Notes: generated by a model not told the origin, from the letters alone. Shown: positions 1-40,858, numbered from the stretch's first letter. The stretch: DNA of 64,000 nt from a virus (IMGVR_UViG_3300045988_170943:64001-128000); one strand, 5' to 3'. Made by a program: numbers and translations.

Positions 1-256
1 ACGACTTCTCTATCCCCAGTAAGCCGTACTCGCCGGACCCCTCAGTGTGAACTCCCTATAGGTGTCGCATACCCTTACACCCCTTGATGCATCCGTGCTC
101 CCCTGTAGCGTGTGATCTGTTTCACCAGATCGCGTGTTGCAGGGGAGCATGCTTGCAGGCTATACTGACACCACAAGCCAGAATCTCGTGTTCACCCGGA
201 TCACAGTGGACTGAGACACCACAAACACACAGCAGACACTAGAGAGGTGCAATAAC

Positions 257-2857: not shown

Positions 2858-3092
2858 TGTCTGCTGGGCCTTTCTGATGGTTCTGTGTGTTGCCTGCTTT
2901 TTGCTGACACACCTTCAATCTGATCAGCATCATCTCATACTTCCAGGCGAAAGTCCAGTTAAAGGTGTGTGATGTGGGTGTCAATCTTGCTGCAACAATT
3001 TGTGTGTCAAGTATCACATGTATACACAGTGCACTTGGGCGTAGAATGGCTTACAATCGCGTGTATATACCTGCACACAGAAAGGATAGTTC

Positions 3093-4679: not shown

Positions 4680-4925
4680 GGTCCCTCTCCTTTTTGTTCC
4701 TGCTGTGGACCTTCGAACCTTCTGTCTTGACTGATGAGTCAATGCTAGGCCGACCAGGGGTCCCAGGCAACCCCAAAACAAGTGAACCAGATCACTTGAA
4801 TACCAAAGAGGATTTTGATGTGACTGCCTTGCTGCTGCCTGTGTCGCATACATCACAACATTTTTTGATCGACCAAGCAAAAAAGAGGCGACCTCAGTCG
4901 GTTAGAACCAAGGCCGCCTCACACC

Positions 4926-5623: not shown

Positions 5624-5796
5624 TTGCTACTGCCCCTTTCTCCTGGTCATCGGTGCCAGGGTTGGTATCTTGCCTGTTTGTGGCACCACTATAGGCAGGT
5701 CGCCCAGACAGTCGCAAGCCCTGAATCAGTGAAGCGGGTCACAAACGCGAGGCACTGGCTCTATCAACATGTGCCCCATGTCACCAATGTTTCCGC

Positions 5797-5825
5797 TTGC
5801 CTCTAGGTGCTTGCTGGTGTAGAGT
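5797..5825 (+). promoter_or_regulatory. sigma70-like promoter TTGCCT-N17-TAGAGT
   Basis: Hexamers and spacing are read directly from the sequence. It lies in the divergent region between the ligase-like gene and the + strand block starting at 5899. Confidence 0.4.
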
Positions 5826-5898
5826 GTGGGACGGTGCCAGGCGTATGATGCTGAAGTTGTAACATCCTGGAAAGTCCTATCGTGAAAGAGAAGCAAGC

Positions 5899-6966: not shown

Positions 6967-7045
6967 CCCTATCGCCTTAAGTTGAGGGGAGCGTCAGAGT
7001 CATAGCATGCGCGGTGGTCGCACCCTCAGTGTCATTGTGTGAGCC

Positions 7046-7093
7046 AGTTCACTCGCCCCAGTGTTGCATTCACCGTTACCCCATGTGTACGCT
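7046..7093 (+). promoter_or_regulatory. composite promoter motif AGTTCACTC-N8-GTTGCA-N18-TACGCT
   Basis: One instance of a motif that recurs at least 10 times in this window. Confidence 0.4.
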
Positions 7094-7146
7094 GTAGCCA
7101 GAAGCCGGGAGGAAGAGCCTGACCGGCAAGAGTAACAGGAATTAAG

Positions 7147-7527
7147 ATGGCTGACTTCTTCGATAGCGATGTTGTTGCCTCCGGCGTGGAGCAGTATGTC
7201 CTCTTTGGTATCCCCACGCGGGCGGTAGCCACCACTTTCAATGGAGAATACGACCTCGTTTCGCCTTATGGTTCCACTGGTGACGAGGATGAGGGGATCG
7301 AGATCTGGCTCTCCGGCGAGGAGGGTGAGGATGAGGACGGGATCTTCATCCGTGGCACCATTGAGCGCGGTGTTCCGGGCGACCTGATTGCCCGGGAGAT
7401 CGACACTGTTGATGCCTGGCAGGATGAGGATGGGACTCCCCATGTCCTTATCGCTGCTGGAGGCTACGAGGTTGTTCTCACTGGCGATCCTGATGCTCTG
7501 GGGTGGGTGGCTTCTCTGGGGGTTTGA
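7147..7527 (+). CDS. hypothetical highly acidic protein
   Basis: 126 aa with about 30 Asp/Glu and few basic residues. Confidence 0.55.
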   Translation: MADFFDSDVVASGVEQYVLFGIPTRAVATTFNGEYDLVSPYGSTGDEDEGIEIWLSGEEGEDEDGIFIRGTIERGVPGDLIAREIDTVDAWQDEDGTPHVLIAAGGYEVVLTGDPDALGWVASLGV

Positions 7528-7750
7528 CAGCAAGCGCAAGACAAGAAGAGCGCGTGAGGGGCCTCTGTCGTTCGGTAGCAGGCAGAGTCCCCTTACGACC
7601 TTCTGCCCAACTACCTACAGGGACACATGTTGTGTGCCACAGGCCCAGATGTTGCCTTTAGGGTGCCTTGTCGTGTATAGTCAGCAAGAGAGAGCATCAG
7701 ATCATCTAGAGTGCTCTGTGATGTTTGCATGAAATGGGAGGGACCCCGTA

Positions 7751-8161
7751 ATGAACAAGACGTTTAGTGCGTACATCGAGTACCATGGCAAGTACACTGC
7801 CGCCCTGAGACTGTTTGAGCGATTCAAGGGGAAGTTCGACAGTCTCCAGGGCGAGGGAGGGTTCAGTTTTGTCGCTAAGATCGATGAGGATGACAGCGAC
7901 TACACGCCCATGATCTGGGTACGAGCCCATGGGACACCTGAATCGGATTCCATCTTTGAGGACCTTCTTAAGTACGTGACCAACAAAATGATCCATACCC
8001 CACACGAAGGGATTGGGAAAGTGTACGCCAAGACTGTCGTCATTGACCCAGTTGATGACGAGTTCTTTATCCCCGAGATCTATGTGACGAAGTACGAGAC
8101 CGACCAAGACGGTATTGTTCAGAGCAGTGTCGAGACGTACATCAGTGACGAGATTGTATGA
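7751..8161 (+). CDS. hypothetical protein
   Basis: The SD 'gggaggg' precedes the ATG. Confidence 0.55.
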   Translation: MNKTFSAYIEYHGKYTAALRLFERFKGKFDSLQGEGGFSFVAKIDEDDSDYTPMIWVRAHGTPESDSIFEDLLKYVTNKMIHTPHEGIGKVYAKTVVIDPVDDEFFIPEIYVTKYETDQDGIVQSSVETYISDEIV

Positions 8162-8206
8162 CCTGACTAGCCCTGTTGGTTCAGAGACGATGAGAGCGGA
8201 GATTCG

Positions 8207-8692
8207 ATGACCCCACTGTTATTGACTGCTGGCATTTCTGGCGGTGAAGCGTCAACGACAAAATCTGACGACATCTATCTTCTCTCCGCTATGGTTGTGA
8301 TTATGGGTTTTTTCGCAATTGCTTTCCTTTTGGGCGATAAAGCCGGCAAGGTCTTGTTGTTTTACGCTACTGTGGTTGTTACCCTCCTTTTCTGGAAGCC
8401 GCACCTTTTCGTCTACGAGAAGACAGTAACCGAACATGCCCCTTACACGATCACTGGGACGGTACTCAAAATCGATAAGAACGACCTTGCGGAGTACAAC
8501 CCCACGGTCACTCTGAACAGCGGAGAGAAAGTCAAGGTCACGGAGGATGCGAAGGACCTGTACCAGTTCATCGGCTCACAAGTGACTCTCAAGTGTGACT
8601 ATGATGAGATGCCAGACAAAAAGATCACTAGCAGCACTTCCTGTGACTTTCAGGGTGCTGGCTCTACCCCAGCCCCTAGCGTATCCAACTAG
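8207..8692 (+). CDS. membrane-anchored hypothetical protein
   Basis: An N-terminal hydrophobic segment is followed by a soluble domain. Confidence 0.5.
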   Translation: MTPLLLTAGISGGEASTTKSDDIYLLSAMVVIMGFFAIAFLLGDKAGKVLLFYATVVVTLLFWKPHLFVYEKTVTEHAPYTITGTVLKIDKNDLAEYNPTVTLNSGEKVKVTEDAKDLYQFIGSQVTLKCDYDEMPDKKITSSTSCDFQGAGSTPAPSVSN

Positions 8693-8760
8693 GGACACCA
8701 CCACTGCAACCATGATCCGTGCACGTGCTTGAAAAGTAGAACCTGAGGAGGAATAGGAGT

Positions 8761-9774
8761 ATGAGCGACACGCGAGAGGTTACAGAGTCCATGGCCCCGA
8801 ATGAGGTCGTGGCATTCCTAAACGATGGAACCCAATCAGGTTCTATCCCTGCCGCACTGGATGACATTCTTGACGACATCCGTGACGAGCAACTATCCTT
8901 GCATGGTTTTGATGAGGGCGAGACACGTGTGGTGAACGCCGTCAATGACTGGTTCGATGACGACAAGATCGCGTGCCTGGTGTGCGAAACAAAGAATGAG
9001 CAAGTCGTCTACACGCTCTCTGAGGTTCAGGACGTCTCAGGGTCCTTTCTGGTGTGGTGGTGGAAGAAGTATGACGCCAGCGCCTACACTGAGTTGATGG
9101 GCGCAATCAAACAGGGGCGAAAGTTCCAGTTCCTCCTACATGAGGGGCAAGGCAACAGATTCCTCATCAATGAAACGATCCAGGAGGTCTGGGAAGTTGC
9201 AAGAAACATCCCCAGAAAGCACTCACTGAAGTTCTTCAAGAGGGTCGTGAAAGAGGAGGCATACTTCTCTAACTCATGGGAGACTGTTGACGACTACCAT
9301 TCCCGGCACTGGCGGCAGTGGCTCTCCAGGGGCGGTTTCGTCAGGTTCAAACCCAAGGGCATTGACATGTTTGTTTGCGTCAGTGACGACCGCAACAAGG
9401 GAGCGCTTTCTTTCTGGCAGGAACTCATCGAAGATGGGGACACGCTGGGAGTGCTCAGAGATGTGGATAAGAGTGGGGTCATGTCCTCCCCCAGCAAGTT
9501 CCCATACCGTGACCTGTGCAGCAAGGTCAAGGGGTACCGTGAAGACCTCTCGGACGTCAAAATTGCCAATAACGACCCCAACCTCTCTGAGAACGGGCGA
9601 GTGAACATTGTTTACATGTTCGTCACCGTGAACAGGTACAATGAGCCATCCGTGTACATGCTGTCAGACCACTTCAAATCTTATGACTGGAGGGTATTTG
9701 ACGACATCGAAGTCATCTCCCCATACCTGCACAAGGTGGGGTGGACTAACAACACCCAAAACAACGAAGAGTGA
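8761..9774 (+). CDS. paralog family A protein
   Basis: The SD 'gaggaggaa' precedes the ATG. Shares 'VYTLSEVQ.VSGS.LVWWWK' and the C-terminal 'SGVMSSPS.FPYRDL.SK..GYREDLSD' with the 9800 ORF. Confidence 0.6.
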   Translation: MSDTREVTESMAPNEVVAFLNDGTQSGSIPAALDDILDDIRDEQLSLHGFDEGETRVVNAVNDWFDDDKIACLVCETKNEQVVYTLSEVQDVSGSFLVWWWKKYDASAYTELMGAIKQGRKFQFLLHEGQGNRFLINETIQEVWEVARNIPRKHSLKFFKRVVKEEAYFSNSWETVDDYHSRHWRQWLSRGGFVRFKPKGIDMFVCVSDDRNKGALSFWQELIEDGDTLGVLRDVDKSGVMSSPSKFPYRDLCSKVKGYREDLSDVKIANNDPNLSENGRVNIVYMFVTVNRYNEPSVYMLSDHFKSYDWRVFDDIEVISPYLHKVGWTNNTQNNEE

Positions 9775-9799
9775 AATAAAGGACAGATTAGGATCTAGC

Positions 9800-10849
9800 A
9801 TGAATAACGCAAAAGAGATTACCGACGACAGCACCCCGAACGAGGTCGTAGCATACCTGAACAACAAGATACAATCAGGCGAGTCACCTTTCACAACGCA
9901 TGATGCTCTTACGGACATTCAAGATGGAGAACTGACCCTGCCAAGATTTAATACTTCGGCTACCATGATTGCCAACATAGTGAACAACTGGCTTGACGGC
10001 AGTGGGGTTGCGCATATTGTGTGTGACGGGTTGACTAAAAACCTAATCGTCTACACTCTTTCAGAGGTTCAGGAAGTATCCGGCTCCTCTTTGGTGTGGT
10101 GGTGGAAGGAGATTGACTCTACCGCCTATATCCGCCTTATATCACCTATTAGAAAAGGGTACGAACTCCAGTTCCTCCTGCATGAGGCGCGCGACAACCA
10201 CTTCATGCTCACTGAGACCGTCCAGAAGGTTTGGGACGCCGCCAGAAGCCTCCCTATAGAGCACTCATTGAGGTTCTGCAAGAAGATTCTCGGAGAACAC
10301 CTGAGAGTGTGGGACACTGCACTTGGCACTAAGCCTGGCTCATGGGAGAACGTTCACGAGTCGCGTTCTCCATCGTGGGAAAGGTGGATTGCAAATGGAG
10401 GAAAAATTGAGTTTGTCACCAACTATGATGTTACAGTTGTTCAAGTAACACCAGAGCAGAACGAGGGACTGATCAAGTACTGGCAGAACCTCATAGAAAA
10501 CGAGAACGACCCAACCAAGGTACTGGATGTGCTTCAGGATGTGGATTATAGTGGAGTCATGTCATCCCCCAGCAGGTTCCCATACCGTGACCTGTACAGC
10601 AAGATCAATGGGTATCGTGAAGACCTCTCAAACATCCAGTATGCCCGCACCGACCCGAACCTATCTGACTACGGGTGGTTGAACATTGTAGACGTGTTCG
10701 TGACAGTAGACGAAAACAGCAAGCCGTTCGTGTACATGCTTTCAAACAACCCAGCCGACTACGGGTGGACACTCTGGGAGAACATCTCATTCATATCCCC
10801 ATACCTGCACAAGGCGGGTTGGAAGATAGACGACAAGCCACAACAGTAG
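9800..10849 (+). CDS. paralog family A protein
   Basis: The start is set by alignment to the 8761 paralog (MNNAKEITDDSTPNEVVAYLNN). The same conserved motifs are present. Confidence 0.55.
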   Translation: MNNAKEITDDSTPNEVVAYLNNKIQSGESPFTTHDALTDIQDGELTLPRFNTSATMIANIVNNWLDGSGVAHIVCDGLTKNLIVYTLSEVQEVSGSSLVWWWKEIDSTAYIRLISPIRKGYELQFLLHEARDNHFMLTETVQKVWDAARSLPIEHSLRFCKKILGEHLRVWDTALGTKPGSWENVHESRSPSWERWIANGGKIEFVTNYDVTVVQVTPEQNEGLIKYWQNLIENENDPTKVLDVLQDVDYSGVMSSPSRFPYRDLYSKINGYREDLSNIQYARTDPNLSDYGWLNIVDVFVTVDENSKPFVYMLSNNPADYGWTLWENISFISPYLHKAGWKIDDKPQQ

Positions 10850-10859
10850 AAAGTGACTC

Positions 10860-10907
10860 AGTTCACACCTGGTGGTGTTGACGGCCAACAACCCGGCCAC
10901 ATATGCT
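10860..10907 (+). promoter_or_regulatory. composite promoter motif AGTTCACAC-N8-GTTGAC-N18-TATGCT
   Basis: Motif instance. The downstream leader 'TATGCTTACCTCATCAAGCCAG' is shared with the 14297 and 14962 instances. Confidence 0.4.
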
Positions 10908-10960
10908 TACCTCATCAAGCCAGCAGGCAAGAAGCCACCAGGCGCAAGGCAAGGAGAACA

Positions 10961-11305
10961 ACAATGACCATCAACCCCACCAATGCCCCTACTGACGTCA
11001 TCAAGTTCCACGAGTCCGCCAAGAAGGCGTTCATTGGCAAGTCAGTGTGGACCGTGGACACGCTGCAACAGCGCACCACCGAGGGCATCATCCACCGCAC
11101 CCGAATCGTGATCTGCGATGAGGAAGGATTTGGTGGAGGCACACTTCAGAACGGCGGCGAGATCCGCAACGTCGGGGCCTTTGTTGGAGCCTTTGGAAGC
11201 ACTATTGATGACGTTCGTTTTGAGAAGTGGGACGAGGGGGTGTACCGCTTCTGGCTATGGAACAATGTCACCCACGATGTGGCAGAGTTCTACTACCACT
11301 GCTAA
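10961..11305 (+). CDS. hypothetical protein
   Basis: The SD 'aaggagaacaaca' precedes the ATG. Confidence 0.5.
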   Translation, partial: TMTINPTNAPTDVIKFHESAKKAFIGKSVWTVDTLQQRTTEGIIHRTRIVICDEEGFGGGTLQNGGEIRNVGAFVGAFGSTIDDVRFEKWDEGVYRFWLWNNVTHDVAEFYYHC

Positions 11306-11343
11306 CAGCCCACACAAGTCACCACAACAGGTGGCAAGAGTGC

Positions 11344-11390
11344 CGCTACCCACCCTGACCTATTCGGTGCGGGTAGCGGTTTTCTTTCGT
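11344..11390 (+). terminator. intrinsic terminator (9-bp GC stem + TTTTCTTTCG)
   Basis: A 'ccgctaccc...gggtagcgg' stem followed by a T-run. Confidence 0.55.
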
Positions 11391-11489
11391 CCATCATGGT
11401 CGCAATAAGCCCCTAGAGCAGAGGACACAAGACGGCTTATTAGCCCGTCGCCTCAACCAGCAATGTGTCCCACTTCATTTCTTCTCATG

Positions 11490-11519
11490 TTGACAACAGT
11501 CGCCCTGTGTGCATATATT
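11490..11519 (+). promoter_or_regulatory. sigma70-like promoter TTGACA-N17/18-ATATAT/TATATT
   Basis: Consensus hexamers read directly from the sequence, upstream of the 11574 gene. Confidence 0.5.
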
Positions 11520-11573
11520 TGAAGTACGTTTAAGGGAGCACCGGCTACATTGAAAGACCCCAAGGAGAAGAAG

Positions 11574-11987
11574 ATGGCTAATGGTTCCGTACTGATTTCG
11601 GGGTATGTGCGTGCTCGCATCAGCATGGAGGACGCTGAAAAGAGGGCGGAGAAGTTCAAGAAGGCCACCACGAAGCGATCCGAGAGCGCGACCGTTGAGG
11701 TTGATATCGAGGATATTCGTGAGATTAGCAAGAAGATTAAGTTCCTTGTTGCAGGAGATTCTGAGAGCCTGACCAACGACATCGACGACTTGGTTGAGTC
11801 CACGCTGTCGAAGGGCCTCAACTACAAAGATCACGCTGTTTGGGGAAAATTTGCGGTAACTGATCTGCGTCAGGTTAAGCCGGGTTGCACCCCAGCAATG
11901 TCAGTCTTCTCGCTCGACTTCGACGGCCACCCTAGAGAAAACGTCGAGGTCAGTAACACTGGTAAGGTCTATAGGCGCTGGATCTAA
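11574..11987 (+). CDS. hypothetical protein
   Basis: The SD 'aaggagaagaag' precedes the ATG. Confidence 0.55.
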   Translation: MANGSVLISGYVRARISMEDAEKRAEKFKKATTKRSESATVEVDIEDIREISKKIKFLVAGDSESLTNDIDDLVESTLSKGLNYKDHAVWGKFAVTDLRQVKPGCTPAMSVFSLDFDGHPRENVEVSNTGKVYRRWI

Positions 11988-11988
11988 G

Positions 11989-12024
11989 TACCCCACGATC
12001 GTTATCATCTTGCTCGTGGGGTAC
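11989..12024 (+). terminator. hairpin terminator (11-bp stem gtaccccacga/tcgtggggtac)
   Basis: Sits immediately after the stop codon at 11985; no strong T-run. Confidence 0.35.
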
Positions 12025-12057
12025 TTGCTCGTATCCCTAACACAGTAGACGTGACCT

Positions 12058-12105
12058 GGTTCACACTGTAGCGTGTTGACTACCTCTCCTCCTATCATGT
12101 AGGGT
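12058..12105 (+). promoter_or_regulatory. composite promoter motif GGTTCACAC-N8-GTTGAC-N18-TAGGGT
   Basis: Motif instance. Confidence 0.4.
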
Positions 12106-12161
12106 GGAGACACAAGCCAGGAACAACAGGGTTGCTGGCGAATACGCACAAGGAGTCGGAA

Positions 12162-12749
12162 ATGACCGCTTACACGTTCTCGAAGTTCGCCAACCCTACC
12201 TCGGATGTCGTACCTCAGCCGGTTGTCGATCTGGCTTTGGAGTTCACGCCTACTGCTACCATTTCTGCCAACGAAGGCGTTTTCGTCTGGGACAACTTCA
12301 AGGCGAACGGTGTGCGTGCCTTCTGGTACGACAATGATGTTGTGCTGGTGCATGTCACCAAGGTGGTTTTCGGGAAGCCGTTCACTTTCACTACTAAGTG
12401 GAACCTTGACTTTGAGGATGAGTGGCCCACTGGTACTCATCTCATTTGGGCTGCGCGTGAGGGGCTGGCTCAGGCTAACGCTCTGGTGTACCTCATTAAC
12501 TATCTGGAGGTCAACGGTCTCGGAGTAGCCGGGAAGATTGACCCTGAGGAAACTGTCATCACTCTGGATAGTGGACGCAAGGTCATGCTCCGTGTGGACT
12601 ATGACAATGAGACCGAGAGCGTGGTGTTCTCCTGGGATGCGGATGGTGCTCTTGATGACATCCTTTCTGCCTTCCAGACTCTTGATGAGATTGAGTACGA
12701 GGCCCCTGGGGGAAAGCGCATCGCCTTCAGCGCCTCCCTGTTCGCCTGA
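12162..12749 (+). CDS. hypothetical protein
   Basis: The SD 'caaggagtcgg' precedes the ATG. Confidence 0.55.
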   Translation: MTAYTFSKFANPTSDVVPQPVVDLALEFTPTATISANEGVFVWDNFKANGVRAFWYDNDVVLVHVTKVVFGKPFTFTTKWNLDFEDEWPTGTHLIWAAREGLAQANALVYLINYLEVNGLGVAGKIDPEETVITLDSGRKVMLRVDYDNETESVVFSWDADGALDDILSAFQTLDEIEYEAPGGKRIAFSASLFA

Positions 12750-12862
12750 GAGGCCACGTAAACTACTCACCCCAGGATCCTCTAGGCACAGGAGAGGATC
12801 CTGGGGTGGGCTTTGTCCGTGAAGAAGGCTGCGGGCGCTCTACCATCAGGGTAGTGTGTCGC

Positions 12863-12909
12863 AGTTCACTCGACTGGAAGTTGCCCCTAGCGCTGGGAGC
12901 ATGTAGTAT
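12863..12909 (+). promoter_or_regulatory. composite promoter motif AGTTCACTC-N8-GTTGCC-N17-TAGTAT
   Basis: Motif instance. Confidence 0.4.
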
Positions 12910-12964
12910 GATGTTCAGAAGTCAGGGGACAAAAGGTCTCATGACAAAACGCGAAGGAGACAAC

Positions 12965-13372
12965 ATGAGCAAGACTGTCACTGAGATTGTTAAGGCCGTC
13001 GCTGAGAATGGACTGGATGCCACTTTCGGCACTACTAACGCCGCTATCGATAATGGCTGGTATGACTGGTTTTGTCAGGACCGCTCACTGAAGAACAGGT
13101 CAAAGAAGTTCATGACCATTCTCAATCGGCTTACTAATGGCGGCAAGGTCAGCCTGGATGGTGAGGTTACCTTCCTGAACAAGTACGCAGAGCATCTGTT
13201 CGATGTCATGATTCTAGAGTCCACTGAGGGCACCATTTTTGTCGAGAATGACCCTCAGGAACATGGGGCGCGTTGGGCTGTTAAGGTGAACGGAAACCAC
13301 CCCACTGAGGGGTTCCTGAAGTTCGACAGTGTTCATGGCCTTGTTGCGTGGCTGAACGAGCCCTGGGGCTAA
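12965..13372 (+). CDS. hypothetical protein
   Basis: The SD 'gaaggagacaac' precedes the ATG. Confidence 0.55.
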   Translation: MSKTVTEIVKAVAENGLDATFGTTNAAIDNGWYDWFCQDRSLKNRSKKFMTILNRLTNGGKVSLDGEVTFLNKYAEHLFDVMILESTEGTIFVENDPQEHGARWAVKVNGNHPTEGFLKFDSVHGLVAWLNEPWG

Positions 13373-13432
13373 CTCGCTCTTACGGAGAGGTAAGAGCGCA
13401 GTATCTCACCCCTTCCTTGCAGGGAAGCGTAT

Positions 13433-13477
13433 GCAGTGCCGTACAGTTGACTATATGAGTTGACTGTACGGCACTGC
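13433..13477. repeat. perfect 15-bp inverted repeat (gcagtgccgtacagt / actgtacggcactgc) with a 15-nt spacer
   Basis: Read directly from the sequence. It sits after the 12965 gene and has no T-run, so it could be a terminator or an operator. Confidence 0.5.
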
Positions 13478-13645
13478 TGTCGCTGATGTTGAGTTTCCCT
13501 GCTAGATTTGACGCATCGGAGGGCGGTGGGTACGAGTGTGGCCTATTTCACTAGAGTCAACATTGATCATGTCTCACGGGTGGTGCTATGCTCATACCAG
13601 ATGCCAAGAACAAGAGGTTGTTGGCCAATATTTGAAGGAGTCACA

Positions 13646-14155
13646 ATGTCCGCCACTATCAAGCCCGCCACCAAGTACATTACCTCCAATGAGGCAATCT
13701 GTGAGGAAAACGTGGTAGAGAAGGGTGACTGGGCTGACTTCCTTGAATCATCCATTAAGGGAATGCACGTGACCGATGTGTACGTGACTACCCGTAAGGC
13801 CGCCCACAATAAGTGCCCTCAGGGAATTGACTGTGATGACTCGAACGAGGGTGACTCTGCGGTAGTCATTGAGGGTCCCGTGAACCGTGTTGTTCTGCTT
13901 GGTCACTCTGCCCCCGATTTTGACAACGATGTCAAGTTGAATGTGCTCAGTTACGACAACTCCGACAAGAGGGTGAACAGTGTGTCCATTGAGGGCATCA
14001 ACACCTACTGGTTCACACAGGGCACTGAGGGCGGAGAGTACTACACCGTCAAGATCGGCCGCCACAATTCGCCTATTATCATTGAGGTCCTGACCTACTC
14101 CGACTCCCTCGGTGATGTGGGCGTGCCATACATTGTGGTCCAGGACGCCCGCTGA
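13646..14155 (+). CDS. hypothetical protein
   Basis: The SD 'gaaggagtcaca' precedes the ATG. Confidence 0.55.
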   Translation: MSATIKPATKYITSNEAICEENVVEKGDWADFLESSIKGMHVTDVYVTTRKAAHNKCPQGIDCDDSNEGDSAVVIEGPVNRVVLLGHSAPDFDNDVKLNVLSYDNSDKRVNSVSIEGINTYWFTQGTEGGEYYTVKIGRHNSPIIIEVLTYSDSLGDVGVPYIVVQDAR

Positions 14156-14170
14156 TAAGCCACTAACTGT

Positions 14171-14218
14171 CGCCCTGGCATGAGGTTCTACCGTTCATGC
14201 CAGGGCGGCTTTATTTAC
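14171..14218 (+). terminator. intrinsic terminator (13-bp stem + CTTTATTTACC)
   Basis: A 'cgccctggcatga...tcatgccagggcg' stem followed by a T-rich tail. Confidence 0.55.
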
Positions 14219-14254
14219 CGCTGTCAGAGTTCACGCAAAACATGACTGTGGCCC

Positions 14255-14302
14255 AGTTCACATGTTTACCAGTTGCGCATGTTCAAGGTCATGCCGTATG
14301 CT
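14255..14302 (+). promoter_or_regulatory. composite promoter motif AGTTCACAT-N8-GTTGCG-N18-TATGCT (plus an extra AGTTCAC half-site at 14228)
   Basis: Motif instance, with the downstream leader 'TATGCTTACACCATCAAAGG'. Confidence 0.4.
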
Positions 14303-14340
14303 TACACCATCAAAGGAAACAAACACAAAGGAGGATAGCC

Positions 14341-14751
14341 GTGAGCGCGCCCCTGGATCTCACCACCTACTTCACCAGCCCGAACACGGACAGTGGTGAG
14401 AAGTTCACTTATGAGAGTGAGATCGCTCTTGGATTAACTAGGGCCGCTGGGAAGTTCTCTTCCATCAGCGGTGAGGTTCTGACTGCTATCAAGCGTCTGG
14501 CTCACGAGGCTGGCAGTCACGTGACCATCCTCAACCCTCCGTCGTCTTTGCTTTCACGTGAGCACCCGCTCATTGTTGCTATTGGGTTCGAGGTGGTAGA
14601 GATTCACCTGGATTACGGACGCATCCAGGTGAACGTGCTCGAAGGCTGGCAGGACGTTCACGCCAACCTCGCTGGGTACACGACGTATGTCCAGTCCGAG
14701 GCGTGGAAGAGCCTGGGTGAGCACATGGCCCATATGGTCCACTGGCAGTAG
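14341..14751 (+). CDS. hypothetical protein
   Basis: The SD 'aaaggaggatagcc' precedes a GTG start. Confidence 0.5.
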   Translation: MSAPLDLTTYFTSPNTDSGEKFTYESEIALGLTRAAGKFSSISGEVLTAIKRLAHEAGSHVTILNPPSSLLSREHPLIVAIGFEVVEIHLDYGRIQVNVLEGWQDVHANLAGYTTYVQSEAWKSLGEHMAHMVHWQ

Positions 14752-14920
14752 CCATCACGGATGATACGACTGGGGTGGGCGCGTTTGGTATGAAGAACGT
14801 GCCCACCCCGGTTCTCCTTGTCTTCTTGCCACGCTCGCACTATCGTCAACACGCCTCTTAGTCTGATCAACCAGCAGCAGCACCCCATGAAGCACGCTAT
14901 CTGCCTGTAGAGTGAGACTC

Positions 14921-14967
14921 AGTTCACACATAGCGGGGTTGCAGTCTGCCGCGGCAACCTGTACGCT
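14921..14967 (+). promoter_or_regulatory. composite promoter motif AGTTCACAC-N8-GTTGCA-N17-TACGCT
   Basis: Motif instance. Confidence 0.4.
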
Positions 14968-15017
14968 TAAACCATCAGGAACACGACGGCGATTACCGCC
15001 AGAACGGAGACAGACAG

Positions 15018-15506
15018 ATGAGCATCAATCTTGTTGCCAACATGGTTATTGGCAAACGCGAGACTGTCAACATTCTCAACCCCGACGAGAATGAGAGTTG
15101 GGTTTCTTTCCGCCGCGCCGAGTTCAATTTCGACTCCGTGAGCGACTTTATTACCGTGGTTAAGAGGTTGTTCCTCATGGATCACCCTCACTCCGATCTT
15201 CTGATGAACGAGCGTGACAGGGAGGCGGTTCGTATCCCTACTTTCCTCCAGGTCGCTGAGGATCTTGGTGCGGAGGTTGAAGATGTTGAGCGACCTGGTG
15301 ACAGGGATTGTCTGTCTGGTGGGTTCGGGGACGATGCCGCGATCCTGTTTGGTGGAACCGTCTTCCCTGACGAGGACAACACCTACCTGGCTCTTTTCGG
15401 CAGTTCAGCATCCGGGGACCGGAAGTGGCCAGGCCACAAAGACGTGGTAGATGCTGTTAGGGGAGGCTTCGTCGCCCAGGAGGCCAAGAACCTGGGAATC
15501 AAGTAG
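15018..15506 (+). CDS. hypothetical acidic protein
   Basis: The SD 'acggagacagacag' precedes the ATG. Confidence 0.55.
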   Translation: MSINLVANMVIGKRETVNILNPDENESWVSFRRAEFNFDSVSDFITVVKRLFLMDHPHSDLLMNERDREAVRIPTFLQVAEDLGAEVEDVERPGDRDCLSGGFGDDAAILFGGTVFPDEDNTYLALFGSSASGDRKWPGHKDVVDAVRGGFVAQEAKNLGIK

Positions 15507-15531
15507 AAGTACGTTAACCCTAGGGTGGTGT

Positions 15532-15580
15532 ACTTCACATGACCTTGGGTTGCTTCACCTGGTAGGGGTGACATATACTA
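15532..15580 (+). promoter_or_regulatory. composite promoter motif ACTTCACAT-N8-GTTGCT-N19-TATACT followed by AGAGTCATGACAG
   Basis: Motif instance. It shares the downstream 'TATACTrGAGTCATsACAG' with the 19530 instance. Confidence 0.4.
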
Positions 15581-15633
15581 GAGTCATGACAGGGAGCAAT
15601 AAGAGCGCTCTGACTAGATAGAAAGGCTCAGTT

Positions 15634-16014
15634 ATGTCAGGCTTCTTCCGTAAGGCCCAGGCAGAGTCGGAGATTGATACGGTTATGCGTAACGTCTGTG
15701 ACGCCTTCCGTGATGAGTTCAATGTGGAGCCATCCATCTCTGACGATAGTGCACCCTTCTCCTTCCGTGCGTACCACTTTGACGCGCGTTGCAAACACCT
15801 TGTTATCGCCCGTCGAGTCATTGATCACTGGGTGATTGATGTTGCTCTTCAGATCCCTCGCAAGGATGAGATTCTTAAGGGACAGTCAACCACTACTGAT
15901 GTATCCTATGGTGGGGTCAAGGCGGCCATCTCGAACGCTCTCTACCATGGGGTCGTTGTGGATCGTATCAGCGGTGAGGTTATTCGTCGTCTCGGACACA
16001 GGCGCTCCGCCTGA
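15634..16014 (+). CDS. hypothetical protein
   Basis: The SD 'gaaaggctcag' precedes the ATG. Confidence 0.5.
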   Translation: MSGFFRKAQAESEIDTVMRNVCDAFRDEFNVEPSISDDSAPFSFRAYHFDARCKHLVIARRVIDHWVIDVALQIPRKDEILKGQSTTTDVSYGGVKAAISNALYHGVVVDRISGEVIRRLGHRRSA

Positions 16015-16226
16015 CAGTTTCTACACATAAACAACAGGTGTATGTGACGTGGATCGTTCGGTTTCATGCAGGCCGCCCACCAATACCGTCGCTCGCAGTG
16101 GGGTGCTGTTGTTGCACACATCACTACCACCTAAGTTGAATGACCTCTTGTGGTCGTGTACACTGAAAGCACCTAAGGGCAGAAGGCGGGCAGGGCCGAC
16201 TGCAAGACGAACAGGAAGAGAAGACC

Positions 16227-16706
16227 ATGATGGACGCGAAGGGCTTCATCAACAAGATCGAGCAGGCCATGAAGAACGGTGAGACCTTTACTCACGCTGT
16301 TGGCAGTTACGGCAGTTTTGAAGTCACTGTTTCCCCTGATGGTAGTGCAGTGTGCAAGTTGGAGGACGAAGAGCACAGTACTCTTCCTGCCGGTAGCAGC
16401 CCGGAAGAGATCCTTAACTACTACTCAACAAGTATCCGCCAGTCGTCCTACTCTTACGACACTGAGGGTGGAGGGTCCGTGACCTTTGTGAAGGACCTCC
16501 AGGTCGGCGACGTCATTCTCTACAGCCTGCATGGCGACGGGAACGCTAAGGTTGTCTCTGTAGACACGACTGACAGTGAGATCGTTGTGACTTTCGTTGT
16601 CCATTCTCCTGGCAGGACGTGGAAGCAGGTTGATACCTACCCTGCCGGGTCTATGATGGAGTTCGATCTCCTTTGGGGGGCTGACTGGGTTCCTGAGGAG
16701 AAGTAG
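16227..16706 (+). CDS. hypothetical protein
   Basis: The SD 'caggaagagaag' precedes the ATG. Confidence 0.55.
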   Translation: MMDAKGFINKIEQAMKNGETFTHAVGSYGSFEVTVSPDGSAVCKLEDEEHSTLPAGSSPEEILNYYSTSIRQSSYSYDTEGGGSVTFVKDLQVGDVILYSLHGDGNAKVVSVDTTDSEIVVTFVVHSPGRTWKQVDTYPAGSMMEFDLLWGADWVPEEK

Positions 16707-16719
16707 TATCCGGTTGAGG

Positions 16720-16768
16720 TCTTGTACTTGTGGGGGCAAGAAGATCCCGTTACCACAAGCACAAGACG
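16720..16768 (+). terminator. hairpin (about 14-bp stem with 1 mismatch), possible terminator
   Basis: Stem 'gtcttgtacttgtgg...ccacaagcacaagac'; no T-run. Confidence 0.3.
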
Positions 16769-16882
16769 CCCCAGTTCTCCTATCGATTTCAAGTGGCATG
16801 AAGTGAACGCGGCTCTCATTAGTGCCCCATTGTGAAACATTTTCCGCATTCTCACTAAAAAATAGGACAGGAGAAGATAGTT

Positions 16883-17359
16883 ATGGCTGAGATCTTCGTC
16901 AAGGATATGTACGCATTCGCTAAGGGCGTCACCTTCAACAGGGACACCAACGGGTTGCACTATCGTCCAACCCTGGCGCTACAGAGGTATCTGAGTGGCC
17001 CCAGTAGCCCGATCCTTATTAGTCCTGACAATTACAGGATTGTTTTCGGGAAGAAGATGTTCTCCATCACGGACGTCTCTGGTATGGCTGGCGCCGGAAT
17101 CAACCATGGTGACACTTTTGACATCGTGTTCCAGATTGATCCCGTATCGCACTACAACAACATCTCTGATGGTGCTTTTGAGGCCGTCAAGAGGGACCTC
17201 TGGTACTTGGCCCGCTGGTTTGAGATGAGCCCGGATGAGGCCAAGAAGATCGATGCAGAGATCGCCAAGGATAATGAGATGAGTCTAGATGGCCTCAACT
17301 CTGTTCTTCAGGCCTGGGGTTTGGCGCCTGTCCCTCAGTCCAAGACATTCAACCTGTGA
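16883..17359 (+). CDS. hypothetical protein
   Basis: The SD 'ggacaggagaag' precedes the ATG. Confidence 0.55.
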   Translation: MAEIFVKDMYAFAKGVTFNRDTNGLHYRPTLALQRYLSGPSSPILISPDNYRIVFGKKMFSITDVSGMAGAGINHGDTFDIVFQIDPVSHYNNISDGAFEAVKRDLWYLARWFEMSPDEAKKIDAEIAKDNEMSLDGLNSVLQAWGLAPVPQSKTFNL

Positions 17360-17515
17360 GTTCGCAAACACTATCCTTGATCAGACACCCCTTTTCTGTC
17401 GCTATGTGACCGGTTACACATCATAGAAAGACATGCATTAGGTGGAAGTGCTCTACAATGATCACGTGAGCAGTCACTCATACTTGTCATTCAAGACCAC
17501 TCACACTCAACGCAA

Positions 17516-18199
17516 ATGAAGGAGAACAGGATCGTGCCCCCAGAAGGACTCACGCCCCTATCTATCAGCGAGTTCGCAGCCAAGTACGGCCCCATCATGG
17601 AGATTGTTGGGATGAGCCGTCAAGGAGTGAAAGACATCCTTGCTATGGCATATGGTGTGTTTCCGTCTCCAGGGAATGGGTACAACGTTACCAGTACTGG
17701 AATTGTTGCGTCCGCTTTCCAGGAGTCTTCTCTGCCTCTTTTGCACCGTCGTCGTCAGGTGTCTGCCACTACGATTTTCAATGCCACTGTTGGGGCATCG
17801 GGTAGGCAGGGTCAGTGGGGTTTCACTATGCAGCAGCACGGCCGCAGAATCATGGCGGCTATCTCTAACCGTGATGGCTGGTTCAAGGTCATGGATGATG
17901 GCCCTGGCTTCAAGTACTATCATGCAGTTAGTGGGGTGAAGTGGGCCGACACCCCGATTCACTACAATAGTGGCGTCAGATCTTCCCGCAATGAGCCTGT
18001 TTTCCTTGATGGCATTCGAGAGATGATTGAGGAGTTGCAGCACATTGTCGCATTAAGGCCTACCATCCCTGAAACCGGGCGAAAGGCGAGACTGTTCTCC
18101 AAGTCCCCAAACGGTTCCCTACTGGACATGCGTGTGCTCAACAACCCCAACATCTGGCAGGAGACACAGAGCAAGGGAGAGGCCGATCAGCAGGAGTAG
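17516..18199 (+). CDS. hypothetical protein (an in-frame GTG at 17534 with SD AAGGAG is the likelier start)
   Basis: The ATG at 17516 lacks an SD. 'aaggag' lies 10 nt upstream of the in-frame GTG at 17534. Confidence 0.5.
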   Translation: MKENRIVPPEGLTPLSISEFAAKYGPIMEIVGMSRQGVKDILAMAYGVFPSPGNGYNVTSTGIVASAFQESSLPLLHRRRQVSATTIFNATVGASGRQGQWGFTMQQHGRRIMAAISNRDGWFKVMDDGPGFKYYHAVSGVKWADTPIHYNSGVRSSRNEPVFLDGIREMIEELQHIVALRPTIPETGRKARLFSKSPNGSLLDMRVLNNPNIWQETQSKGEADQQE

Positions 18200-18322
18200 G
18201 GCATTCTTCTAGCGTGTGACTAGCATTACTGGGTTCCAGGTTGAAGATGCTGCTGTTGTGTCATAGCCTGGTGACAGGTTGACCAAAGAGCGGAAGACAC
18301 TAACACGGAAAGAGAAGCCACG

Positions 18323-19423
18323 ATGACAGTCAAGATTAATGACGCCAAGTATAAGGTGCTCGGCATGCTGGCCGAGATCTCCGATGACGAGTTCACCAGG
18401 TGGAGTGAGAAGCAACTTCATGCCGTCCAGCGCAGCATCATTGAGCGAGTGTCTTCTGGCCCTGAGAAGATCAAGGGCTTCAACAAGAGGATCACCGATC
18501 TCTTCAACAAGGCATCCTATGTCAACAATAACGTGGTTTGCTACGTTGCTGTTGACGACGAGGAAGAGATCATCCTCTACTCTCTCGCCAAGACTTCAGC
18601 AAATAGTTTTGACCGCCACGAGTACGACACGTTCGGCTGGGACTTGGACACACTGAGCCATGACGATGACAGGATTGAGAACGTTGAAGTTCTTGCCGAT
18701 GTTATTGACAAGGCTAATGACCTTCGACGCAATTTCTTGCAGGCGACCGGCAGTCGTTTCGAGACCTGGAACGCATGTCAGGACCTTTGGGTCACCTGCT
18801 ACATAGCGAACGAGCAAATTTCTATGGCTGCCCAGCAGATGCATGACTTCATCGACCAGATCATGAGTTTCGTTCTTGGTGAGACGGGCTCTTTCAAGCC
18901 TAAGAAGGATCCCATCGGTGAGATTGAGTACTGGTTCTATGACGGGGGAACCATCTCTATCAAGAACGGGTACTACACTGAAACCTACAAGGTAGGCCCC
19001 CAGTACTTTGACGGTATCAAGACCTCCTGGATTTATCGGGCTAATGCCGTGGGACTCTCTGGGGATGCGGCTGATCTGATGAACGACATCCTTAAGAGCG
19101 GTGTCATGGCCTCCACAGAGAAGTTCGACTACTCGGAAGTGTACTCCCAATTCCCCGGGTACAGTAAGGAACTGACTGATCTGAGCAAGATGCAGGACGA
19201 CAAGACCTTCAACTATGGTGGAGACACTGACATCATTGACGGTTTCGTTATCGCCGACGAGGTGAAGAACGTTGACGACTCCTGGGCCCACGCTAGCGGC
19301 TACTACTCCGTAGCGGTCCTGTCTCGAAGCATCGACGAGGACACCTACTCCTGGAAGGAAATCTACGACTGGGGTGAGGTGTATGATTATCTCGTTCGGG
19401 CAGGCATGAAGGTCGAAGAGTGA
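18323..19423 (+). CDS. paralog family A protein
   Basis: C-terminal 'ILKSGVMASTEKFDYSEVYSQFPGYSKELTDLS...IIDGFVIADE' matches the family A motif. Confidence 0.55.
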   Translation: MTVKINDAKYKVLGMLAEISDDEFTRWSEKQLHAVQRSIIERVSSGPEKIKGFNKRITDLFNKASYVNNNVVCYVAVDDEEEIILYSLAKTSANSFDRHEYDTFGWDLDTLSHDDDRIENVEVLADVIDKANDLRRNFLQATGSRFETWNACQDLWVTCYIANEQISMAAQQMHDFIDQIMSFVLGETGSFKPKKDPIGEIEYWFYDGGTISIKNGYYTETYKVGPQYFDGIKTSWIYRANAVGLSGDAADLMNDILKSGVMASTEKFDYSEVYSQFPGYSKELTDLSKMQDDKTFNYGGDTDIIDGFVIADEVKNVDDSWAHASGYYSVAVLSRSIDEDTYSWKEIYDWGEVYDYLVRAGMKVEE

Positions 19424-19529
19424 GAACGCTAGCGCGATGTAAGGGCCACTTGTATCTGCGTGTCAGGCAGATCTCAAAGAAGTAAGAGGTCACCTGAACG
19501 GCAGCAGGCGACGAAGGACTTTGTGACTC

Positions 19530-19577
19530 ACTTCACTAGCCTCATGGTTGATCGGCCGTGAAGGTTGTGTCTATACT
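19530..19577 (+). promoter_or_regulatory. composite promoter motif ACTTCACTA-N10-GTTGAT-N18-TATACT followed by GGAGTCATCACAG
   Basis: Motif instance. Confidence 0.4.
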
Positions 19578-19616
19578 GGAGTCATCACAGCGCAAGAACA
19601 CTTGAAGGAGTGATCA

Positions 19617-19927
19617 TGTTCTCTACATTCCCTGCCGTTATGCTCTCGCTGCCCACCCTCTTCGGCGGCGACAAGGCGACACCAGCCCCTTCGCACAACT
19701 CCCGTTTCAAGCACTGGGAGGGTAAGCGCGTCTGGGAGCCGCCCATTGGTGAAGAATCTGAGGGTAGTGTCGATTATGACTACTACGAGATGGCGCCTGA
19801 TGGGACGATTCGAGGTCACAAGCACGTCATGCACAAGCATGTCTGTGTGGCGCCTGATAACTGCCCGTTCGGTGGGGTTGATGAGTACTGCTTGGAGTGC
19901 CACTACGGGCTCCCCAAGCACGTGTGA
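19617..19927 (+). CDS. hypothetical protein with C-terminal Cys-rich (zinc-ribbon-like) region
   Basis: The SD 'gaaggagtgatc' precedes the ATG. The C-terminus reads 'CVAPDNCPFGG...CLECHYG'. Confidence 0.5.
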
Positions 19928-20033
19928 CCCACTCCACCACTAAGATTGTTGCCTGAACCTTGATAAAGCATGTACGCTAGTGCCATCAAGGCTCAGGCAA
20001 CAAGGCATCTGAACCGTTTAGGAAGAAACACCC

Positions 20034-20210: not shown

Positions 20211-20214
20211 TGTC

Positions 20215-21978: not shown

Positions 21979-22014
21979 GTGGGTCACACCTCATACTCGA
22001 CAGGTGTGACCCAC
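21979..22014 (+). terminator. perfect 13-bp hairpin (gtgggtcacacct/aggtgtgacccac) followed by a TTCAGTATTTC tail
   Basis: Read directly from the sequence. It lies about 190 nt downstream of the tnpB1 stop. Confidence 0.4.
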
Positions 22015-22220
22015 TTCAGTATTTCTGATGTGCGGATTGACCAACCCTAGCTCTTGCAATCTTGTCTGGTGACAGTGGTCAAGACGTACTTAACTGCTGT
22101 CACTTCTCCACTTCGGTTATCATGGGAATTCATGCTGGTGCTTGACGTGACTCCTATGGTAGTGTATTATTGTGTGTGGCAGTGATCCTGCTATCAAGAG
22201 TAGTTGTAGAAGAGGATGCA

Positions 22221-25881: not shown

Positions 25882-26019
25882 TAGGACACAACTCCCCCAC
25901 TCAACCCAGCAGGCAGGTGTGGCGTATGTCACCAGCACTGCTGCACTCGCGTGGGCTCTAGTTGTGTATAGTTAGAGACGGCGAAAGCAACCAAAACGAT
26001 CCTGAAGGAGAACCAAAAC

Positions 26020-36466: not shown

Positions 36467-36846
36467 GACTTCTCCTGTTGTTTGTGCTGTCATGTTTCTT
36501 CTGGTGCTAACTCTACACCACCATACAGTCAGACATCTACCCTGAAAGCATGTGACATGGGACACAGGCGCACCGACCAGGATGGCAGTATAAGGTTGAC
36601 GACTCAAGGCGCCCCTGGCGAGGCAATCTAGTGTGCCTTGTTGCGCGTTCTGCGCCACACGAAACGCGGTCACCCGCCGCCACCAGCCAACGACATGGAG
36701 GGCCGCTGGAGCACCCCACGGAAGGCACTGAAGTTACGAAAGAACCCAAGAGTAATGGTGTAGAGCACGTTTGACAACCCCTCTCTGGCGGTTAGATACT
36801 ATTCCAGGAACAGAGAACCCGTCACCCCACCCCCAAGGAGCCACCT

Positions 36847-37920: not shown

Positions 37921-37997
37921 GCCGCATACTCGCGTTGAACAGGCGATAAGGCAGGCAGGGAAGATGACTTTTCTGCTGACACCAAGGTGATGTGCTG

Positions 37998-38045
37998 GGG
38001 TTCACACTCGCTCATGTTGACTGGAACGCCACCTTGGTGGGACAA
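37998..38045 (+). promoter_or_regulatory. composite promoter motif GGTTCACAC-N8-GTTGAC (weak -10)
   Basis: Motif instance upstream of the 38138 gene. Confidence 0.3.
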
Positions 38046-38137
38046 TCTGCTCAGACCAGGCCATGCTCATGGTTCTGGGAAGAAACCATCCGAACCTGTA
38101 TCCCAGTGAATGCAGGCTACAAACAAGGAGCAGAGAC

Positions 38138-40707: not shown

Positions 40708-40792
40708 TAGCACCGCTGAGTGCAGAGTAACTTTCACGGCAACAAATTCCACAGGGCATGATGTGCATGTGGCGTACATCACTCTCGCCAGA

Positions 40793-40822: not shown

Positions 40823-40858
40823 TGAACGCGCAGTCACCAAACAGAGGAAGGAAGTAAA

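Follow-up and report, generated by a model that had tools for sequence, protein, structure and literature searches.

The 64,000-nucleotide stretch of viral DNA IMGVR_UViG_3300045988_170943:64001-128000, referred to at its full length as the window, carries a composite promoter-like motif that recurs in front of its small genes, and the question it raises is what this motif is and what reads it. The motif probably represents about 30 copies of one transcription-initiation cassette, consisting of early-type promoters for the host RNA polymerase that are helped by a CRP-like dimer. An earlier inspection of the same DNA, the sequence-only reading, had proposed a phage-specific promoter class with a sigma70-type core and an upstream factor site. 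This proposal is supported at the sequence level by strict spacing, intergenic and co-oriented placement, conservation of the blocks, and the geometry of leaderless genes.

The full unit is TGTGA-N5-TTCAC-N10-GTTG-N20/21-TAnnnT. Its upstream part is a 16-bp dyad, TGTGA-N6-TCAC(a/t), whose symmetric form, TGTGA-N6-TCACA, is the CRP/FNR-type consensus. GTTG lies exactly 10 nt past TCAC, and TAnnnT lies 18 nt past TTGnnn. The AGTTCAC element described previously is real, but it is only the promoter-proximal (right) half of this dyad, and the palindrome had been overlooked. Likewise, the spacing between GTTGNN and TANNNT is fixed as claimed, but at 18-19 nt (18 past TTGnnn) rather than 17-18 nt, in agreement with a generic promoter scan.

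An exact-pattern scan of IMG/VR returned 59 loci, and scanning these together with two loci from relatives yielded 108 distinct sites of the same clade (orthologues among them) on contigs of 117-398 kb with GC contents of 0.46-0.58. The consensus of the 108 sites is TGTGaC.cagTTCACt-.gtt...gg-GTTGc-(N18 from TTG)-TAnncT-kGaGy-CAtCA. Within the dyad, G2, T3, and G4 are conserved at 95-97% and C13, A14, and C15 at 95-100%, with the right half better conserved than the left. The offset from dyad to -35 is 25 throughout, apart from single cases of 24 and 26, and the offset from dyad to -10 is 50 (78 sites), 49 (28 sites), or 51 (2 sites). The TTGnnn-to-TAnnnT spacer is 18 in 25 window cassettes and 17-19 over the clade, and no other spacing between dyad and core was seen among the 108 sites or in a window scan with a dyad matrix. 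The middle of the -10 is G/C-rich, and the G before TTG is invariant.

An A is found seven bases past the -10 in 94 of the 108 sites and is preceded by C in 86, while the second base past the -10, at discriminator position -5, is G in 76. The conserved C-A within CAtCA may mark a preferred C-1/A+1 start. Taking this A as +1 places the dyad centre at -54.5 (±1), 42-43 bp 5' of the first base of the -10, and the dyad itself at -62 to -47, so the earlier placement of a factor site near -50 was about right. In three other phage lineages with a like layout (L017, L035/L054, and L007), leaderless genes have their ATG 7-8 nt past the -10, which fixes the start-site geometry independently.

The two temporal or regulatory leader subclasses that had been suggested do not hold up, as a single block, kGaGy-CAtCA, follows the -10 across the 108 sites. 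The first, TA..CT-rGAGTCATsAC, is the clade consensus itself. The second, TAYGCT-TAMMC-CATCA, accounts for 9 of the 108 sites, some of them mutual orthologues, and differs in five discriminator bases only while retaining the same CAtCA; the proteins downstream of its three window members are unrelated. The supposed subclasses are variants of one discriminator/start-site block, and there is no basis for separate classes.

The cassette occurs far above expectation in the window. The full string has four exact matches against 0.00 expected, with none in the shuffles, and a weight matrix with a required -10 recovers 21-24 sites against 0.06-0.4 expected (200 Markov shuffles). A dyad matrix built from other genomes only finds 47 dyads against 11 expected, and AGTTCAC-N10-GTTG with at most two mismatches gives 45 matches against 23.3; those with 0-1 mismatch in the 7-20 kb interval are all on the + strand. 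The generic promoter scan independently called TTGnnn-18-TAnnnT at four cassettes; neither near-consensus promoters nor terminator-like sites (21 vs 14.3±3.9) were enriched in it. The window tally is 25 cassettes with dyad, -35, and -10 (three of them weak) and six with dyad and -10 only; 22 sites are strong composites.

Conservation follows the same blocks. Across 12 pairs of orthologous promoters, one member from the window and the other from a 394-kb relative, identity is 98% for TTCAC, 98% for GTTG, 97% for CAtCA, and 88% for TGTGA (88-100% over the blocks), compared with 74-79% in the two spacers and 64% in the upstream flank and leader, which indicates purifying selection on the cassette blocks. 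The dyad halves show no covariation, with 2 of 61 left-half deviations (positions 1-5) compensated on the right, which indicates that the dyad is a pair of protein half-sites rather than a hairpin or terminator.

Placement is equally regular. By a crude gene call the window is about 80% coding, and 17 of the 22 strong dyads lie outside all called open reading frames (ORFs), while the other five touch just short or opposite-strand ORFs. The motif is thus neither equally frequent in coding regions nor wrongly oriented, two of the outcomes that the sequence-only reading had named as counting against it; dyads are mostly outside ORFs, and all are co-oriented with genes. On its own strand, every cassette leads into a Shine-Dalgarno (SD) sequence and start codon; these lie 20-90 nt past the predicted start, or as far as ~150 nt in a few instances. 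Between 10.8 and 20 kb there is about one cassette per gene, and these genes are ORFans.

The ten sites listed earlier are all present. Site 37998 has the dyad and -35 but a defective -10, and the half-site at 14228 exists but has no -35 or -10 belonging to it. The earlier list, real as far as it went, missed at least 12 strong sites (111, 4796(-), 5743(-), 11464, 13537, 16110, 18215, 19923, 40768, 51008/51023(-), 56129(-), and 61356(-)) and about six sites with dyad and -10 that lack a -35. The cassettes of the window are given below; ranges run from the dyad to the predicted start site, elements are in the order dyad / -35 / -10, genes are by crude call, and the position under which a site was first listed is in parentheses.

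111..173, +: TGTGATCTGTTTCACC / GTTGCA / TATACT; gene 257-853.
3003..3064, +: no -35; dyad TGTGTCAAGTATCACA, -10 TACAAT at the usual offset; gene 3093-3647.
4735..4796, -: AGTGATCTGGTTCACT / GTTGCC / TAGCAT; gene 4679-3990.
5681..5743, -: TGTGACCCGCTTCACT / CTTGCG / TATAGT; gene 5624-4926.
5770..5832, +: weaker, back to back with 5743(-); TGTGCCCCATGTCACC / CTTGCC / TAGAGT; gene ~5899-6546.
7038..7100, + (7046): TGTGAGCCAGTTCACT / GTTGCA / TACGCT; gene 7147-7527.
7627..7688, +: degenerate, poor dyad, TTGCCT-18-TATAGT; gene 7751-8161.
10852..10914, + (10860): begins 2 nt past the upstream stop codon; gene 10964-11305.
11464..11526, +: TGTGTCCCACTTCATT / GTTGAC / TATATT; gene end 11987.
12050..12112, + (12058): gene end 12749.
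12855..12916, + (12863): gene end 13372.
13537..13599, +: TGTGGCCTATTTCACT / ATTGAT / TATGCT; gene 13646-14155.
14220..14235, +: extra half-site (AGTTCAC at 14228) without its own -35/-10, 27 bp 5' of the dyad at 14247.
14247..14309, + (14255): gene 14341-14751.
14913..14974, + (14921): gene 15018-15506.
15524..15586, + (15532): gene 15634-16014.
16110..16171, +: TGTTGCACACATCACT / GTTGAA / TACACT; gene 16227-16706.
17405..17466, +: no -35; dyad TGTGACCGGTTACACA, -10 TACAAT; gene end 18199.
18215..18276, +: TGTGACTAGCATTACT / GTTGAA / TAGCCT; gene 18323-19423.
19522..19584, + (19530): exact consensus; gene 19616-19927.
19923..19985, +: 5' of a 58-aa ORF and the TnpB-like gene 20263-21786; synteny break at 19959 between -35 and -10.
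22005..22020, +: orphan dyad TGTGACCCACTTCAGT without -35/-10; synteny break at 22018 inside the dyad.
25918..25979, +: no -35; dyad TGTGGCGTATGTCACC, -10 TATAGT; gene 26020-26616.
36503..36566, -: no -35; dyad TGTGTCCCATGTCACA, -10 TAGAGT; gene 36466-36113.
37991..38053, + (37998): defective -10 (GACAAT); gene 38138-38452.
40768..40830, +: TGTGGCGTACATCACT / GTTGCA / TACACT; gene 40859-41380.
43317..43380, +: -35 shifted and weak; dyad TGTGACTAGTAACACA, -10 TATGCT; gene 43485-44183.
44496..44558, + (44504): exact consensus; heads operon 44607-48569.
50961..51069, both strands: divergent pair with shared dyad 51008-51023; -35 GTTGCA / CTTGCG, -10 TACACT / TAGTAT; + side gene 51109-51411.
56067..56129, -: TGTGATCTGTGTCATG / GTTGAT / TACTAT; gene 56028-55771.
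60081..60144, -: no -35; dyad TGTGATGTGAGTAACA, -10 TATAGT; ORF 60041-59265.
61295..61356, -: -35 one base closer; TGTGACATAGAGCACA / TTGACA / TAAAGT; gene 61258-60623; last cassette before the class ends.

The cassettes are confined to one part of the genome. Five more lie in the 10 kb 5' of the window, and none was found in the ~8.6 kb past its end, where large surface-protein genes begin. In relatives, exact matches likewise fall in a single region each: 350.8-381.9 plus 13.4-24.8 kb of a 394-kb genome, 74.6-118.9 kb of a 398-kb genome, and 1-64 kb of a 233-kb genome. The class therefore marks a single ~70-kb block, or about one-sixth of the genome, that holds small ORFans and a few metabolic genes, such as those of the operon under cassette 44496. 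Since it is restricted to one ORFan-rich block, the class looks like an early (host-takeover) class, judging from large lytic phages such as T4 (PMC2988021).

In the mechanism proposed for the cassette, host RNA polymerase carrying the housekeeping sigma factor would read the -35 and -10 and start at the conserved A. A dimeric helix-turn-helix protein of CRP/FNR-like specificity would occupy the dyad at about -54.5, with a footprint from about -65 to -44 that ends where the -35 region begins. This dimer would recruit or retain polymerase, probably via the alpha C-terminal domain in the weakly conserved, T-rich 10-bp gap (t.gtt...gg). Six window cassettes without a -35 hold dyad and -10 at the usual offset (49-51); there, the contact between dimer and polymerase could replace the -35, which would explain why the distance from dyad to -10 is kept. 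The divergent pair at 50961..51069 has one dyad with a separate -35 and -10 on each side, as a symmetric dimer would allow, and a like arrangement recurs in GC-rich L016/L048. The resulting mRNAs would have a stable hairpin close to the 5' end, together with a strong AAGGAG ribosome site.

At the sequence level, the core resembles a housekeeping-sigma promoter in its TTGnnn/TAnnnT hexamers with a 16-19 bp spacer, a predicted purine start 6-8 nt past the -10, and a co-oriented gene. TGTGA-N6-TCACA is the CRP-family consensus in proteobacteria, actinobacteria, and others. The CRP site of lac is TGTGAGTTAGCTCACT, and the site of cassette 7038 (TGTGAGCCAGTTCACT) differs from it in the central spacer only. 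In M. tuberculosis, this consensus takes the form NGTGNNANNNNNCACA (PMC2844151). CRP class I promoters such as E. coli lac P1, and actinobacterial CRP/GlxR sites such as M. tuberculosis whiB1 CRP1, share the 16-bp dyad, the core of the 22-bp CRP site, as well as its location 5' of a -35/-10 core and the possibility of divergent promoters. They differ in position: 10 bp separate the dyad from the -35 hexamer in the cassette and 17 in lac, so that the cassette dyad is nearer by 7 bp than a site at -61.5 and nearer by 4 bp than the mycobacterial site at -58.5 (PMC2844151). They also serve scattered host operons, whereas here a fixed module provides about 30 promoters per 70 kb of phage DNA. The CRP/FNR class II arrangement, in which a site at -41.5 overlaps and replaces the -35, does not apply, as the cassette dyad ends 10 bp 5' of the -35 hexamer.

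Among phage systems, the late promoters controlled by P2 Ogr, P4 delta, and 186 B are also host-polymerase promoters with a hyphenated dyad and a recognisable -10. The P2/P4 Ogr/delta dyad is centred near -55, and the phage activator acts via the alpha subunit. Its consensus is TGT-N12-ACA (PMC3931495), compared with TGT-N10-ACA in the cassette. P2 has four such promoters before late structural operons, whereas dozens stand before small ORFans here, and Pfam searches of the window and related loci, with about one-fifth of the genome covered, matched no Ogr-like Cys4 zinc-finger gene. T4 early "uber" promoters (UP/-35/TGn/-10), by which a large lytic phage draws host polymerase to its numerous small early genes (PMC2988021), are similarly long, being conserved from about -60 to +1. 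They use an A/T-rich UP element and TGn, whereas the cassette has a G/C-containing dyad, an 18-bp spacer, and no TGn in register (TG directly adjoins the -10 in many sites). The promoter-early stem-loop (PeSL) cassettes of T4-type phages are likewise short conserved promoter units that recur among the small, variable genes of plastic genome regions, and the ends of insertions or replacements between close relatives lie in them (PMC2839356, PMC4122927), comparable to the breaks at 19959 and 22018 described below. A PeSL combines a terminator stem-loop with an early promoter; the cassette instead has a non-covarying, protein-type dyad without a T-run and belongs to a different phage lineage. Sigma54 (-24/-12) and extracytoplasmic function sigma promoters, the LexA box (TGT-N8-ACA), and Streptomyces PhoP direct repeats (GTTCACC) were excluded by spacing or symmetry. 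A literature search for this motif in phages found nothing relevant.

The same geometry, dyad-N9-GTTG-N20-TAnnnT, was also observed in other IMG/VR phage contigs (L017, L035/L054, L007; L016/L048/L058; L049; L062) with GC contents of 0.39-0.68. These lineages have few genes in common, and the best protein matches of L054, L049, and L062 are in actinophages. In orthologous host promoters of Armatimonadota (L073, L074, L078, L082), Solirubrobacterales (L070, L085), and Macrococcus/Macrococcoides (L075, L077, L080), a perfect TGTGAC-N4-TTCACA dyad stands as far from a TTGACA/-10 core as in the cassettes. The Armatimonadota sites lie 5' of a cold-shock-protein gene (cspA-like) whose leader is long. 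These host promoters are a few among the 22 matches to bacterial genomes, a chance-level number given below.

As the binder of the dyad, a host CRP-family protein is slightly favoured over a phage-encoded factor, because the site is an exact CRP consensus, the geometry recurs in unrelated lineages, and no DNA-binding gene is detectable nearby. Pfam searches of nearly all window ORFs, 132 non-redundant clade proteins, and 150 proteins of the other lineages returned no helix-turn-helix, CRP, sigma, or polymerase domain. Several points weigh against reading the cassettes as early host-polymerase promoters with a CRP-like dimer. Start sites, timing, and factor dependence are all inferred, and -54.5 is not known as a productive position of E. 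coli CRP, whose productive positions are reportedly -41.5, -61.5, and -61.5 plus whole helical turns. The activating mycobacterial CRP site at whiB1 is at -58.5 (PMC2844151), and the proximal half-site of the cassette faces the opposite side of the DNA, some 1.5 helical turns away from the -35 centre. The motif is absent from Streptomyces phage Riptide (1-22 kb) and Actinoplanes phage phiAsp2 (1-50 kb), which are cultured relatives of two other motif-bearing lineages, and an exact-pattern scan of 185,579 species genomes gave 22 matches, about chance level, so the geometry is not common in bacteria. On the technical side, both members of each orthologous pair had passed the motif filter, and the 108 sites, which include orthologues, are not independent. 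The weight matrix behind most counts was trained on window sites, which is offset by the dyad matrix from other genomes and the plain consensus searches.

A phage-encoded dimeric regulator, made from the first transcripts or delivered with the virion, is a serious contender for the dyad, and would make the promoters middle-type or self-boosting early, in the manner of P2 Ogr, phi29 p4, and Mu Mor/C. Its position near -54.5 is unlike the CRP classes and like the P2/P4 late-promoter dyads (TGT-N12-ACA, PMC3931495). Bacterial genomes show no excess of the geometry, its absence from the cultured relatives would be expected of a factor gained and lost along with the phage, and the mostly ORFan genes could hide a new DNA-binding fold. 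Set against this, no helix-turn-helix, zinc-finger activator, or CRP-like domain was found in the 64-kb window, ~200 kb of related early regions, and the other lineages; the site matches the CRP consensus base for base; and lineages nearly without common genes would each need the same factor. It is improbable that the dyad is instead an operator, at which a dimeric repressor next to the -35 of a constitutive host-polymerase core silences the early block later or in some state. With a usable -35 and -10, most cassettes could initiate without help, and recurrent operator-plus-promoter units are known in actinophages (L5 stoperators and phiC31 conserved inverted repeats). Coordinated early shut-off is also common in large lytic phages (T4 review, PMC2988021). 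The site nonetheless lies wholly 5' of the -35 (-62 to -47) rather than over the -35, -10, or start, where repressors usually act; its spacing is fixed to the base pair; and the six cassettes without a -35 keep the distance from dyad to -10, as activator-dependent promoters look.

Recognition of the whole 60-bp unit, dyad included, by a phage-encoded sigma factor or polymerase is rather more doubtful still. Huge phages often carry such proteins, and the inspection covered ~84 kb of the ~420-kb genome. The uniform 18-bp spacer, the invariant G before TTG, and the G/C-rich -10 middle are slightly atypical for a housekeeping sigma. However, TTGnnn/TAnnnT with a purine at +7 is the standard housekeeping pattern, sigma factors do not read two-fold symmetric elements, no such domain occurs in any inspected ORF, and the same layout is found in unrelated, small actinophage-like contigs of 36-60 kb. 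It is very improbable that the palindrome acts as nucleic acid, whether as a terminator or stem-loop for the upstream gene (T4 PeSL type), a cruciform, or a recombination signal, with an incidental promoter link. The cassettes do lie between small genes, like PeSLs (PMC2839356, PMC4122927), and two synteny breaks fall inside cassettes. The halves nevertheless show no compensatory change (at position 5 of the left half, 36 sites deviate and one is compensated), the stem would be just 5 bp without a T-run, terminator-like sites show no enrichment, conservation is higher in the right half than in the left, and the spacing between dyad and -10 varies by no more than ±1 bp.

For an activator-type sigma70-class phage promoter, the cassette is unusual in three respects: its exact CRP-type site is centred at -54.5, a huge phage uses it as a mass-produced module, and it recurs in unrelated phages that appear to be actinobacterial. 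It seems unlikely, if still worth stating, that a ~400-kb phage family, and independently several actinophage-like lineages, wired a whole early block, with dozens of promoters per genome, to a host CRP-family regulator through an undescribed geometry (-54.5, 10 bp from the -35). If so, the start of infection would be gated by host cyclic AMP or metabolic state. The question raised is whether the phage borrows a host CRP-type regulator where the textbook protein should fail or brings a look-alike, and either answer would inform contacts between activators and RNA polymerase. That unrelated phages share the geometry points to a solution of general use, not to an isolated case. Metagenomic huge phages are almost entirely uncharacterised, gene timing included, and a precise promoter definition marks ~70 kb and ~100 genes as one transcription class. 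The cassette is also a 60-bp part usable in reporters.

The leaders that follow the cassettes are structured. Their first 45 nt exceed shuffled controls in folding stability (mean z -1.44, n=108), and many have a stem from about +5/+6 (GCCAG...CTGGC and variants) with purine-rich loops. RNAalifold found no common structure in 28 leaders; without a single alignable motif, this suggests a general 5'-hairpin feature rather than a defined RNA family, and it plausibly protects the mRNA 5' end. At about +15 to +25 of most cassettes (e.g., 7100-7135 and 12112-12140), hairpin loops and 3' arms are rich in SD-like AAGAGG, AACAGG, AAAGGG, and AGGAG, besides the real ribosome site downstream; these strings could be stand-by ribosome sites or a protein-binding motif. 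The sole convincing intrinsic terminator in 4-22 kb is at 4885-4920 (-), between convergent or neighbouring small genes, with a 15-bp stem, eight GC pairs, and a T6 tail. Since terminators are scarce, read-through between cassettes is likely.

Alignment with the 394-kb relative shows a 1.6-kb TnpB-like module (20212-21805) swapped for an unrelated 1.6-kb segment that bears two other cassettes. Homology breaks at 19959, directly past GTTGCCTGA of promoter 19923 (between -35 and -10), and at 22018. Because the latter falls inside the orphan dyad at 22005, this dyad is probably a recombination remnant. The cassettes may serve as recombination points that exchange gene modules, which is offered as a lead rather than a rule, as one event only has both ends in cassettes. 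Two further indels were seen: a 1.1-kb window-specific segment with the -35-less cassette 3003 and its gene (window 2960-4044 vs L004 5066-5304) and a 0.5-kb segment specific to the relative (window 27022 vs L003 18834-19330).

The window is evidently part of a huge, uncultured, phage-like genome of about 420 kb, as metagenome contigs of 418,686 and 420,306 bp contain the identical sequence. The close relative in IMG/VR is 394,300 bp, with 77-95% protein identity to the window. Megablast of 13 kb of the window against 50,697 deposited phage genomes gave no nucleotide match, and tblastn with a 466-aa ORF gave no match. About 95 genes are present, nearly all small ORFans, and no tRNAs or Rfam families were found in the window. 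Pfam matches in the window are limited to three TnpB-like proteins, one zeta-toxin/kinase-like protein, a radical-SAM protein, an NAD synthase, and a weak phosphoribosyltransferase.

The three TnpB-like ORFs (Cas12f1-like TNB domain) are at 20263-21786 (+), 30078-31595 (-), and 57430-58962 (-). Matches to the TnpB-like protein are limited to distant transposases of archaeal viruses and an Alicyclobacillus phage, and no relative was found in the 185,579 species genomes. Copies 1 and 2 share 74% DNA identity, confined to the region from ~40 nt 5' of the start through ~9 nt 3' of the stop (20222-21795 vs 31636-30069); since identity ends near both ORF edges, they lack the long shared 3' flank expected of a guide RNA or insertion sequence end. 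Copy 1 is missing from the 394-kb relative. A palindrome with perfect arms TGTGTATTGTAACACA at 59002-59017, containing TACAAT, lies 39 nt 5' of the GTG start of the third copy. Its position is not the usual activating one for the dyad; an operator or a transposon-end structure is conceivable.

Five paralogous ORFan proteins of ~340-400 aa with 22-47% identity (8761-9774, 9641-10849, 18323-19423, 22757-23854, and 24838-25881) are dispersed in the promoter-rich block. A 400-aa protein with a Zeta-toxin/AAA_33 kinase-like domain is encoded at 41930-43132 (-). The operon at 44607-48569, headed by cassette 44496, is a possible NAD-related auxiliary metabolic module. Its products are a 121-aa ORFan, a radical-SAM protein, a NadE-like NAD synthase, and a 466-aa protein that weakly matches phosphoribosyltransferase; a search with the NAD synthase gave weak, scattered matches. 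Just past the window end, in L091 12283-21125 (contig ena:ERZ27262911:k119_16908), cassettes cease and large genes start. These encode a second radical-SAM protein, a 532-aa protein with GramPos_pilinD1 and SpaA domains, and a 2622-aa surface protein with leucine-rich repeat, SpaA, and Ig-like domains. The pilin (SpaA-type) domains hint weakly at a Gram-positive host, and the only further hint comes from the other motif-bearing lineages, which have actinophage affinity.

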